From Aquirhabdus parva (lineage in GTDB: Bacteria; Pseudomonadota; Gammaproteobacteria; Pseudomonadales; Moraxellaceae), in assembly GCF_003351745.1 (NCBI RefSeq), contig NZ_CP031222.1, positions 454,207 to 478,206 of the forward strand: DNA of 24,000 bases. The letters are read 5' to 3'. Below are positions 13,323 to 16,980 of the stretch, in pieces; positions within the stretch are counted from its first letter, which is position 1; each line of letters begins with the position of its first letter. The notes beneath the pieces are model-generated. The model saw only the letters and a program-made list of their open reading frames with translations. It was not told where the DNA came from and made no database searches. The position numbers and the translations under genes were made by a program.

Positions 13323-14249
13323 CTAGGTCTGCTGATTGATACCGCTTAAGTTGCCTTGCAAGCCACCGGTATGAATCGCCAGAATTTTGCTGTGCGCAGG
13401 GAAGTAACCGCGTTCAATTAAGTCAAAAATCCCAAACAGCATTTTTCCTGTATAGATCGGTTCGAGCTCAATTTGAGTTTGCTTTTGAAAATCATGGATA
13501 AAATCGAGTAGCTCAGGTGTAGTCTTGGCGTAGCCACCAAAGTGATAGTCCAAGCACAGATCCCAATTGGTGCGGGTTGCCCATTGCCTGATTTCATCAA
13601 AAAGAAAACCACCTTTGAGTGCAGGGAAGCCCAAGACTTTTTGTCGTTCAGCACTTGAGTTAATGATCCCCGCTATGGTGCCACCAGTGCCTACGGCACA
13701 GCAGATCACATCGAAGTTTGCACGATCCTGCACGGTCAATATCTCTTCGCAGCCTTGTACTGCCAGTTGATTGGTTCCGCCTTCTGGAATCAGGTAGAAC
13801 TCACCCAATTTTGCTCGAAGATTTTCGAGGAAATCGGTATCGGTTTTTCGGCGATAATCTGTGCGACTGACGAAGTGCAGTTGCATGCCGTTGGCTAGCG
13901 CTTGGGCAAGCGTGGGATTGTCGGCGATTTTATCTGTTAGCTCTTCGCCACGAATGATGCCGATGGTTTGAAAGCCATGCTCTTGACCTGCTGCGGCAAC
14001 AGCAGCGATGTGGTTGGAGTAGGCGCCGCCAAAGGTAAGGAGGGTAGTGTGTCCCTGTTTCCGAGCTTCAATCAGGTTGTATTTGAGCTTGCGGAATTTG
14101 TTGCCTGAAATCGTGGGGGGCAGGAGGTCTTCACGTTTGAGGTGGAGTTGGATGTTGCGGGGCTGAATCTGTGGAAGACGGTGCATGCTAGAGATGCCTG
14201 CTTTATTGAACCCGTTAAAGCAGGACATTGGATTAAGATGCTTTTCCAT
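13323..14249 (-). CDS. PLP-dependent 1-aminocyclopropane-1-carboxylate deaminase / D-cysteine desulfhydrase family protein
   Basis: Supporting motifs are KREDLLPPTISGNKFRKLKYNL (the PLP lysine motif GNK-x-RKL), TFGGAYSNH, CAVGTGGT and IHTGG. The start is uncertain: ATG 14249 overlaps the upstream gene by 17 nt, and the alternatives ATG 14228 and 14186 also lack a strong SD. Confidence 0.85.
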   Translation of the reverse strand: MEKHLNPMSCFNGFNKAGISSMHRLPQIQPRNIQLHLKREDLLPPTISGNKFRKLKYNLIEARKQGHTTLLTFGGAYSNHIAAVAAAGQEHGFQTIGIIRGEELTDKIADNPTLAQALANGMQLHFVSRTDYRRKTDTDFLENLRAKLGEFYLIPEGGTNQLAVQGCEEILTVQDRANFDVICCAVGTGGTIAGIINSSAERQKVLGFPALKGGFLFDEIRQWATRTNWDLCLDYHFGGYAKTTPELLDFIHDFQKQTQIELEPIYTGKMLFGIFDLIERGYFPAHSKILAIHTGGLQGNLSGINQQT

Positions 14250-15561
14250 AGTATTCTACAAGGAGTTTTTCTATGGTTTTATTAATTTTGGATGCATCTA
14301 TTTTATTCGATATTTTTAATAATAAAGAAATACTTCTATTGTTTTTAATGTCAATTTCATTAAGTTTATGTTTTTCAACAAGCTTAATCCAGTTTAATTG
14401 AGGTTTATCGGACGTTAATTTATGTAAAATTCTAGTATCGCTAGGTAGTACATTATTTAAATAATAGGCCCATCTATCTACAGTTATTCGATCAAGGATT
14501 TGTGATGCTTCACTTTCAGCACTCCAAGCAACTCCATAAGAATTTCCTAGTACAATGCATAAAAGAGCACTTATGCATGCAGGAAGTGCGGGGGTTGGAA
14601 TTGTCGATCCGAGTTTAGAGAGGTTCTTAACAGGCGTGGCTTCATTGTAGAAGTTATTTAAACCTTCATGAGCTCGAATAATAGCTTCGGCTGCTTTTAC
14701 AAAGGTGTCACTGCGAAGGTTCTCTGGTACATAGTCGAATCCACCTACTTTAAGCAGTGCACTTTTTAACCCACTTACAACAGTTGCTTTTCCATCAGCA
14801 TAAGCCTCGGCATAGGTGTGCCCTATTTGCCACTTTTCTGTATCGCGTAGATTTAACCAAAGCGCTGGTAAAAGTACATTAATATTAGCAAGGGTATGTT
14901 CTAAGTTAGCCCCATTATTTTTTTTCGCGGCATTCATTAATACACTAATAGTAAGCTTGTAATAAAAATATGGCGAGCTTTTAAGCATTTCAACACGTTG
15001 ATCTTTATCATTGAATGTTTCATCTTCAAGCGCATCTCTAAAATCAACAAACTTCTTAGCAACTTCAACCTTAGGCCGACCAAGAACCCCTTTTATGCAT
15101 GCTTTCAGTGAGCCAATGGCTTCAGCTTCATCTATTTCTTCAGCGTCACTTTCTACAGTTTCCATCTTGGAGAAGTGTGTAATGAGTTCATATGTATGCC
15201 GGAGCCGCATTCCTTCGGTGGATGATATAATACCCAGTTCTTCAGCCAGTCGTACCGCATCCTTAGTTGTTAAGATATCATCAACATCATCATCTTCATT
15301 TACATCGGGTTTTCCAAGCATTTCCCCTAATAAGCCAACGCCTACAGTGGAAAGTTCTTTTTTCAAAGCGGTTATTGTTTTTCCCCAGAGATAATTTATG
15401 GCCATTTCAAAATGCCCTGCATCAAATGCAGAAACAATTTGATTTCTATCCTTAATACTAAGCTGTTCTGCATATTGTGATATCTCAGCAGGAGTTTTAG
15501 CACTAGAAGGAATTAGGTCACTATTTTTTTGTTGCCATAACGCGATGTTATACATTTTCAT
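14233..15561 (-). CDS. hypothetical helical protein (442 aa), partner of the DAC-like protein
   Basis: This long uninterrupted ORF in AT-rich DNA has ATG 15561 or ATG 15555 as its start. AAGGA lies 7 nt upstream of 15555. The start overlaps the upstream stop (15548) by 8-14 nt. The product has an acidic tract (DVNEDDDVDD) and no family motif I recognise. Confidence 0.75.
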   Translation of the reverse strand: MKMYNIALWQQKNSDLIPSSAKTPAEISQYAEQLSIKDRNQIVSAFDAGHFEMAINYLWGKTITALKKELSTVGVGLLGEMLGKPDVNEDDDVDDILTTKDAVRLAEELGIISSTEGMRLRHTYELITHFSKMETVESDAEEIDEAEAIGSLKACIKGVLGRPKVEVAKKFVDFRDALEDETFNDKDQRVEMLKSSPYFYYKLTISVLMNAAKKNNGANLEHTLANINVLLPALWLNLRDTEKWQIGHTYAEAYADGKATVVSGLKSALLKVGGFDYVPENLRSDTFVKAAEAIIRAHEGLNNFYNEATPVKNLSKLGSTIPTPALPACISALLCIVLGNSYGVAWSAESEASQILDRITVDRWAYYLNNVLPSDTRILHKLTSDKPQLNWIKLVEKHKLNEIDIKNNRSISLLLKISNKIDASKINKTIEKLLVEYYGKAS

Positions 15562-16570
15562 TTCCTTTAAATTCTGACCAACCGTCTTGGGATTGCATAA
15601 AAACAGCAGTCAAACCTTTACCGATTTTCATCCCCAGAGCTTCAAATGCTCTTCTTCGCGCGCCACCAACTATGCCATGTTCTTGTCTTAGCTTCACAAA
15701 ACAGTTATAGCCTAGAAGTTGTCCAGAGTCATTGAATAAAATAATTCCATCAGAATTTAACATCCCATTTAGTAGATACCCTTTACTTTCTAATTCAGAT
15801 GGGGGTATTTGATCCTTTTTAAGAGATTTAACCAGATCTGGGAAACTAATTGGTTTTTCAAGTATTACACCATCATTAGATAGGAATGCAGGCGCTTTCG
15901 TTCGATTTGTGACGGCAATAATACAGCCATGCGATTGACGAAGAGCTTCGAAGAGCATTCTTGATACAAAACTGATAGTAGGCTCTCGTTCAATATCCTC
16001 AGTTTTCTCGGTAATGGCTCCAACCAATGCATCCAAAAATTGAAGTGGAGGGGGGCTATTATCTTTTCTATGGTTTAAAAAAATATAATGATGTCCTCCA
16101 TTATTGCAACGGATTTCAACGCAATCATCGGCAATTTGGTAGGCTTTCACAATTGGGAAAACAGGATTTTTATCCATCAATACTACATCAATTAATACAG
16201 ATATAGGATGACTAGACCCTCTGAATACCCCGTATTCAATACCGTTAGAACTTCCTTGTATATAAACTAGCCATCCACTTGTTGCAAGCGGTGCACATTT
16301 TTTTAGAGCTTGTTTTATTCCAGAAATATTAGCACTTGAACTCCCTATTTTTATACGTTCAGCTTCGGGAAGCATGCTTATAATATTGTTCATATTGTTT
16401 GTTAGATAGACTTTAGGACATAGACTAATCCCTTCTTCTTGGTATCTGGATAATAATACAACTAATTCAACCAAGTGTAAGTTATCGGCTAATAATTCTA
16501 TTTTACTATTCTGGCAAAATTCTGAGACGCCGCCAATTAATTGAGTTCTAAAAGTTATATTTGTTGACAT
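15548..16570 (-). CDS. diadenylate-cyclase (DisA_N/DAC)-like domain protein with uncharacterised N-terminal domain (340 aa)
   Basis: ATG 16570 has TAGGAT 10 nt upstream. The C-terminal half carries HGCIIAV (aa 214-220), SDGIILFNDSG (273-283), GGARRRAFEA (302-311) and AVFMQSQDGWS (322-332). These run in the same order, with about the same 30-aa DG-to-RxR spacing, as the DAC motifs GALIV / DGA / GTRHRAA / S-x-x-x-G. Aa 1-190 are unrecognised. Confidence 0.75.
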   Translation of the reverse strand: MSTNITFRTQLIGGVSEFCQNSKIELLADNLHLVELVVLLSRYQEEGISLCPKVYLTNNMNNIISMLPEAERIKIGSSSANISGIKQALKKCAPLATSGWLVYIQGSSNGIEYGVFRGSSHPISVLIDVVLMDKNPVFPIVKAYQIADDCVEIRCNNGGHHYIFLNHRKDNSPPPLQFLDALVGAITEKTEDIEREPTISFVSRMLFEALRQSHGCIIAVTNRTKAPAFLSNDGVILEKPISFPDLVKSLKKDQIPPSELESKGYLLNGMLNSDGIILFNDSGQLLGYNCFVKLRQEHGIVGGARRRAFEALGMKIGKGLTAVFMQSQDGWSEFKGNENV

Positions 16571-16607
16571 TGTTTAGCGATCCTATTGCTAATACTTTCT
16601 AGGATTT

Positions 16608-16635
16608 ATTCTATCAGATATGATGTTATTCTGAA
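16608..16635 (-). promoter_or_regulatory. candidate sigma70 promoter for the two-gene islet operon
   Basis: On the minus strand, TTCAGA (16635-16630) is followed by a 16-nt spacer and TAGAAT (16613-16608), about 38 nt upstream of ATG 16570. This is a pattern match only, made in very AT-rich DNA. Confidence 0.25.
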
Positions 16636-16775
16636 TAAATAAAAATTGCTCAAAATTTCATTTTTAATATTTATATTGGTTTTGTGAAACTAAACACGCT
16701 CGATTAATTTTCGGTTAACATTAAGTTTCACAGATTGAAAGTACTCAGAGAATCTATGCTGTAAGTATTCGCAAG

Positions 16776-16812
16776 ATACATCTTGATTTTTTTGATAAAA
16801 ATCAAGATGTAT
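16776..16812. repeat. perfect 16-bp inverted repeat with 5-nt spacer
   Basis: ATACATCTTGATTTTT (16776-16791) - TTGAT - AAAAATCAAGATGTAT (16797-16812), read directly from the sequence. It sits in the divergent region between the islet operon and the acyl-CoA synthetase gene. Confidence 0.9.
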
Positions 16813-16980
16813 AAACCTAAGTTAGAGTTGAAATGTAGTTCCATTCATACTTTTTGATTGTTTCGTTATATTTTAAGACTTCATTCTGACCATTTCCATC
16901 ATTGACACCCCATCATCCATACGTTAAACCTGTTTTGAACAACATACCCCTGAAAATAATGAAACATCACAAGGAAAGAG

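Follow-up and report, generated by a model that had tools for sequence, protein, structure and literature searches.

In a 24,000-nt stretch of Aquirhabdus parva DNA (contig NZ_CP031222.1, positions 454,207 to 478,206), which we call the window, we found a low-GC insertion carrying two genes on the minus strand. The first encodes a protein whose C-terminal domain resembles diadenylate cyclases (DACs), and the second, directly downstream, encodes a soluble all-alpha protein that we call the partner (Table 1). The partner gene begins inside the DAC-like gene, with an overlap of 14 nt (8 nt if its second ATG is taken as the start), and its start is closely preceded by an AGGA. The insertion is flanked by housekeeping genes, namely those of a pyridoxal phosphate (PLP)-dependent enzyme and a flavoprotein on one side and of an acyl-CoA synthetase and a valyl-tRNA synthetase on the other. 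The 340-aa DAC-like protein is 100% identical to a hypothetical protein of A. parva (Moraxellaceae) that bears the UniRef name "DAC domain-containing protein."

The original prediction, made from the letters of the window, had proposed a DAC-like catalytic core with altered signatures at positions 15566-15988. On the minus strand and in frame, this interval corresponds to residues 195 to 335 of the 340-aa open reading frame (ORF). The four sequence strings quoted in its favor are all present in the order and spacing described: HGCIIAV, SDGIILFNDSGQLLGYNCF (residues 273 to 291, containing DGI), GGARRRAFEA (residues 302 to 311), and AVFMQSQDGWSEF (residues 321 to 333, containing SQDG). HGCIIAV is separated from SDG by 53 residues, and D274 from R305 by 31 residues, versus 32 between D171 and R203 of Listeria CdaA (sequence checked against PDB 6hvl).

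Table 1. Features of the two-gene insertion in the window (minus strand where a strand is given) and patatin genes beside the pair at other loci, which are identified by their L numbers
Feature	Position	Strand	Basis or remark
Low-GC two-gene insertion, 2.7 kb, GC 0.356	14233..16980		Flanks GC 0.48-0.50
Partner gene, 442-aa ORF (annotated 440 aa), soluble all-alpha product	14233..15561	-	Downstream of DAC-like gene
DAC-like gene, 340 aa	15548..16570	-	ORF list; AlphaFold 2 model pLDDT 87, pTM 0.82
N-terminal alpha/beta domain, residues 1-175	16046..16570	-	Without Pfam, PDB or DAC similarity; family-specific
C-terminal DAC-fold domain, residues 176-340	15551..16045	-	Foldseek, hhalign, sub-threshold PF02457
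HGCIIAV strand, residues 214-220, counterpart of GALI(S/V)V in CdaA/DisA	15911..15931	-	hhalign register, conservation
DGI, counterpart of catalytic DGA	15743..15751	-	hhalign register, conservation
GGARRR, counterpart of GTRHR (phosphate binding)	15650..15667	-	hhalign register, conservation
SQDG, probable counterpart of CdaA S-E-E-T-G (Ser and acidic metal ligand)	15581..15592	-	Conservation
AT-rich intergenic region upstream of the operon, GC 0.29	16571..16980		Sequence composition
Patatin loci	L045 8663-9625; L039 2746-4619; L041 12819-13919; L005 12691-13806		Orientation varies

A divergent DAC-like domain and its N-terminal companion

We built an AlphaFold 2 (AF2) model of the DAC-like protein from 33 homologues and compared it with the PDB by Foldseek. 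The 38 best matches were all DAC domains (E values of 1.9e-4 to 2.3e-2), belonging to DisA of Mycobacterium and Thermotoga, to CdaA of Bacillus, Listeria, Staphylococcus, Streptococcus, and Enterococcus, and to CdaM/DacM of Mycoplasma. Their TM scores were about 0.5 to 0.58, normalized to the target DAC domain of about 150 residues, and their sequence identity to the DAC-like domain was just 14 to 19%. At rank 39, the E value fell to 0.12 and the probability to 0.03.

A profile of the C-terminal domain, derived from 61 divergent members of the family, was then aligned by hhalign with five solved DACs, whose sequences came from PDB searches. The alignment (P value of 3.2e-5, probability of 73%) placed HGCIIAV on GALISV, DGI on DGA, and GGARRRA on GTRHRAA. 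The register of SQDG on SEETG is uncertain by 1 to 2 residues, because this motif lies in the low-confidence tail of the alignment. When the same 61 relatives were scanned singly, PF02457 (DisA_N) was the sole Pfam family to recur; 7 of the 61 matched it, all below threshold, with a best E value of 0.0023. For the A. parva protein itself, the HMMER check against PF02457 came out negative, no Pfam domain being found at E≤1, and there was no PDB sequence match and no PADLOC or meaningful NCBIfam match.

When 1.84 billion cluster representatives were searched with the profile, 560 clusters (50% identity) were retrieved at E≤0.001. Nearly all members measure 335 to 355 aa and share the two-domain layout of the query; the longer ones carry low-complexity extensions, and we saw no informative fusions and none to the partner. 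Residue conservation was counted on 150 representatives clustered at 50% identity. Overall identity drops to 26 to 30% in this family, yet G215, D274, G275, R305, R307, S327, D329, and G330 are kept at 94 to 100%, and the motif positions are the most conserved of the family. In the first strand motif, H214 is found in 143 of 147 sequences and G215 in 147 of 147. D274, G275, and R305 are each present in 148/148, R307 in 139/148, S327 in 146/148, D329 in 143/147, and G330 in 146/147. Two signature changes had been singled out in the original prediction. The first, DGA to DGI, is seen in most of the family, the third position being I in 125 sequences, V in 19, and A in 1 (I or V in 144/148). The second, RHR to RRR, does not: the central residue is R in 55, S in 27, K in 26, T in 18, and H in 6 of the 148 representatives, so that the position is free and the His-to-Arg exchange is no family trait.

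Structure, profile alignment, the recurrence of PF02457, and motif conservation thus agree, and together they support the assignment of the C-terminal domain to the DAC fold, as originally proposed. Judged by its sequence, this domain also appears to keep the residues that DACs use for catalysis, namely Asp-Gly, Arg-x-Arg, and Ser-x-Asp. The low identity to DACs and the missing Pfam and PDB sequence matches would suit a chance motif match or a convergence, in a protein of unrelated fold and function. We find this scarcely credible, since structure, profile alignment, sub-threshold Pfam matches, and conservation all point to one register and the Foldseek matches break off after the 38 DAC chains.

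The protein has no hydrophobic segment (highest Kyte-Doolittle [KD] mean over 19 residues, 1.49), and with no Pfam domain detected, it lacks the CdaA membrane anchor, the DisA HhH domain, and the CdaS N-terminal helices, as had been noted from the sequence. The unrecognized soluble N-terminal region mentioned in the original prediction comprises about 175 residues and resembles neither the Pfam families nor any PDB sequence nor the DAC domain itself. A profile search with it returned only fragments of the DAC-like family, and a Pfam scan of the 61 relatives found no match to it, including the N-terminal domains known to be associated with DACs. Five of its residues, E45, E46, K90, W100, and G114, are invariant across the family. 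We also considered that it could be a degenerate second DAC domain arising from an internal duplication. The order of secondary-structure elements looks alike, but hhalign comparisons of the N-terminal domain with the C-terminal domain or with DACs gave E values of 0.24 to 0.32, and we rejected this idea. The N-terminal domain is a candidate sensor, regulatory, or partner-binding domain.

The helical partner

In the window and in all 46 loci fetched by their DAC-like gene, the partner gene directly follows the DAC-like gene on the same strand, overlapping it or a few nucleotides away. This holds for DAC-like relatives of just 29 to 38% identity, and no third gene is conserved across the pair loci. 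We found 545 homologues of the partner, which is the better conserved of the two proteins, at 70% identity versus 60% for the DAC-like protein in one comparison and 40% versus 28% in another. Two loci show peculiarities of this gene. In a Rhodoferax metagenome-assembled genome (L032, 11016-11819), it is broken into two ORFs by a frameshift or stop, perhaps because the copy is decaying or was misassembled. In Vibrio parahaemolyticus (L009 to L011, 12336-12968), a 210-aa ORF on the same strand overlaps the end of the partner gene; it has no Pfam match and no counterpart at the other loci.

The AF2 model of the partner (pLDDT of 85) consists of 25 helices and no beta strands. Foldseek retrieved only weak, generic ARM/HEAT-type solenoids from the PDB (E≥0.02) and nothing from the BFVD viral models. 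The one borderline hydrophobic helix, residues 321 to 339 (KD of 1.93), is buried in the model. We considered a membrane protein and known helical enzymes, HD and HEPN among them, and rejected these, as Pfam, NCBIfam, and PADLOC gave no match and the Foldseek matches were generic; in addition, the sequence has neither an Rx4-6H motif nor an invariant HD doublet.

The partner does have more distant relatives. It matches the phage protein family phrog_27609 (E value of 7e-17), and its profile finds plasmid proteins of 440 to 490 aa (E values of 1e-25 to 1e-17) in Streptomyces, Rhodococcus, Bacillus, Clostridium perfringens, Listeria, Acinetobacter schindleri, and Pantoea. In the loci of this kind that we examined (L034 to L038, L052, and L053), the partner-like gene occurs without a DAC-like gene, among toxin-antitoxin, partition, and recombinase genes. 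An AH-G--NFYNE motif (residues 297 to 307) belongs to the core common to these proteins, and by sequence, the partner is a member of a wider, uncharacterized all-alpha superfamily. On Listeria monocytogenes plasmid pLIS32 (L037, 2932-5215), the solo partner-like gene begins 8 nt past a gene encoding AbiJ_NTD3 and Abi_C domains, which suggests an operon with a known Abi-type (abortive infection) protein.

These solo genes, next to toxin-antitoxin and AbiJ genes and without a DAC-like ORF, bring up a different division of labor, in which the DAC-like domain would be a non-catalytic nucleotide-binding or regulatory module and the helical protein an autonomous Abi-like effector that is sensed or restrained by the product of the first gene. 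The higher conservation of the partner and the variable center of the RHR-equivalent motif fit such an arrangement. On the other hand, D274, G275, R305, R307, S327, and D329 remain invariant, which would be unusual if catalysis had been lost, and we hold this explanation, the strongest rival to our preferred reading below, to be unlikely, though worth keeping in mind.

Genomic neighborhoods of the pair

The pair is present in alpha-, beta-, gamma-, and deltaproteobacteria, including Smithella, with a patchy and strain-variable distribution. Two peptide patterns specific for the close family matched 22 of 185,579 species genomes, a number that, given the narrow reach of the patterns, is no estimate of prevalence. 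On plasmids, the pair is rare (2 records). In Pseudomonas, it occupies one variable site, beside Gabija and a reverse transcriptase, a SIR2-STAND gene, or a P2 prophage. In Enterobacteriaceae, it immediately follows the integrase of an SmpB-adjacent island; in Raoultella, it stands at the end of a CP4-57-like element; and in Vibrio and Burkholderia, it lies within integrase islands. One metagenomic lineage (L050/L051, 4476-13754) carries the pair inside a type I restriction-modification (RM) operon, in the order hsdM, hsdS, a Hypoth_Ymh gene, the pair, and an hsdR with a DUF4145 N terminus. Among 138 neighbors in 20 further genomes, type I RM subunits, MADS, type IIG enzymes, HipA, Schlafen/AlbA_2, and PIN proteins were recurrent. 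Qualitatively, then, the pair is repeatedly located in defense islands or in the cargo of mobile elements. The original prediction included neither the partner gene nor these mobile and defense-related surroundings.

Among the contexts examined, a minority have a patatin phospholipase gene adjoining the pair, in one of three arrangements. The gene is convergent with the pair in Enterobacteriaceae and Raoultella and divergent from it in Acinetobacter beijerinckii; in Agrobacterium, it is again divergent but accompanied by a nucleotidyltransferase gene, in a CBASS-like set. Between Acinetobacter and Agrobacterium, the patatins share 66% identity but the DAC-like proteins only 28%, and the Acinetobacter locus is without a CD-NTase.

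This distribution bears on two simpler explanations. A DAC fold with conserved catalytic residues could belong to a housekeeping cyclic di-AMP (c-di-AMP) synthase with a part in ordinary physiology, such as osmoregulation or DNA-damage signaling. The original prediction had considered a housekeeping role unlikely, and the patchy, strain-variable, low-GC cassette, its links to integrases, RM systems, and prophages, and the lack of all CdaA, DisA, and CdaS accessory domains lead us to the same view; we regard such a role as very improbable. The second explanation is an addiction or toxin-antitoxin-type module that stabilizes mobile elements and plays no role against phages. A translationally coupled two-gene cassette on islands and plasmids, often near toxin-antitoxin genes, would look much like this one. 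However, products of 340 and 440 aa are far above the typical size of toxin-antitoxin components, and the cassette is found inside an RM operon and in defense hot spots. We give this possibility little weight, while noting that toxin-antitoxin and defense roles are mutually compatible.

In the window, the AT-rich region upstream of the DAC-like gene presumably holds the operon promoter, although promoter-like matches are no more frequent there than in shuffled sequence. In this region, which separates the DAC-like operon from the divergently oriented acyl-CoA synthetase gene, two perfectly complementary 16-nt arms form an inverted repeat around a 5-nt loop (16776-16812; ATACATCTTGATTTTT / AAAAATCAAGATGTAT). 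Since 28 other loci lack this repeat ahead of the pair, we rejected a conserved operator. We also rejected a nearby RNA element such as a c-di-AMP riboswitch, as Rfam gave no match at E≤1. Direct repeats that would delimit an island were not found flanking the insertion, and the pair locus of the window has no tRNA. Downstream, the ORF of the PLP-dependent enzyme (13323-14249, minus strand), as listed, shares 17 nt with the end of the partner gene. This overlap may be an artifact of taking the longest ORF, and the true start is probably an internal Met, M8 or M22.

A putative nucleotide-signaling module

Proteobacteria largely lack DAC enzymes (PMC12901056). The DAC-like domain resembles that of CdaA/DacA, DisA, and CdaS in its predicted fold, in motif order and spacing, and in the Asp, the Gly, both Arg, and the Ser. 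It differs from these canonical DACs, which have DGA and G(T/S)RHR, by DG(I/V), by GGAR-x-R with a free central residue, and by an insertion of about 16 residues before DG. Further differences are the new N-terminal domain of 175 aa, the helical partner that always accompanies the DAC-like protein, and the location of the genes on proteobacterial mobile DNA.

Two DAC-based defense systems have been described in Proteobacteria. Panoptoo couples PanS, a DAC of about 150 aa, to the membrane effector PanE; PanS carries the motifs DGF and GGR, is active, and makes 3'3'-cUA or c-di-AMP (10.64898/2026.08.10.743927). Like our pair, PanS-PanE is a proteobacterial two-gene operon in defense islands that joins a divergent DAC with altered motifs to one partner. 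Since PanS is active with DGF and GGR, the variant motifs seen here are compatible with activity. However, PanS consists of the DAC domain only and was found through Pfam DisA_N, whereas the DAC-like protein has 340 aa in two domains and goes undetected by Pfam; and PanE is a membrane, beta-rich, Cap15-like (S2TM-beta) effector, whereas our partner is soluble and all-alpha. The second system, the CBASS-DAC protein DS-2C, is a DAC of about 550 aa with DACNG, DACNH, and DisA_N domains and belongs to a proteobacterial anti-phage system (PMC13092281, PMC13069673). Like the DAC-like protein, it is proteobacterial and has non-catalytic sequence N-terminal to its DAC domain, and a patatin sometimes stands beside our pair. 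The adjacent patatin recalls CBASS-DAC (DS-2), for which a patatin effector driven by the DAC signal has been proposed (PMC13069673). Nevertheless, DS-2C has a canonical DisA_N domain and DACNG/DACNH and comes without a helical partner, whereas our pair matches no such Pfam domain. The CBASS-DAC operon also includes a cGAS-like cyclase along with the patatin, whereas a nucleotidyltransferase gene stands beside the pair only in Agrobacterium among the contexts examined. The pair thus fits neither published defense DAC class, nor is it CdaA, DisA, or CdaS. It is absent from the PADLOC v2 models, and we found no description of the family in the searchable literature, which did not extend to the Galperin 2023 census of 22 DAC architectures, where it could have been listed earlier.

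As a mobile cassette that is often found among anti-phage genes, the pair is probably an undescribed nucleotide-signaling defense module. We lean toward reading it as a self-contained, horizontally mobile two-gene unit, whose most likely role is in anti-phage defense or another kind of conflict. In such a system, the N-terminal domain would gate the DAC-like enzyme, and the DAC-like fold would condense nucleoside triphosphates to a nucleotide signal, which may be a cyclic dinucleotide or something related and need not be c-di-AMP. The partner, translationally coupled to the DAC-like gene, would receive or control this signal, most likely as the effector.

Several observations weigh against this reading. 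At the sequence level, neither protein of the pair reaches significance with any Pfam, PADLOC, or NCBIfam model, and the family hidden Markov model finds no DAC sequences in the PDB. The partner has no recognizable catalytic, membrane, or nucleotide-binding domain, and its role as an effector is therefore a guess; moreover, the solo partner-like proteins of plasmids imply that the helical protein can work without a DAC-like gene. As to context, the enrichment in defense genes was read off about 30 loci without scoring against a background, the window has housekeeping flanks and no other defense gene, and no homologue was found in the E. coli genomes or phage genomes searched.

Among the major classes of cyclic-nucleotide synthases, DACs were the last to be tied to immunity (2025-2026), and both known defense DAC classes were discovered via the Pfam DisA_N signature, which the present family escapes. 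More tentatively, and with the odds rather against it, the pair might represent a third, unrecognized class of DAC immune signaling, in which a divergent, sensor-fused DAC would make a non-canonical signal for an effector of the all-helical superfamily and, in some lineages, would with this signal also supply a neighboring patatin phospholipase. If this were true, a family of 560 clusters would widen the repertoire of DAC-type signaling and might bring with it a new product and a new effector. A family of helical proteins without an assigned function, present on many plasmids, would thereby gain a testable context.

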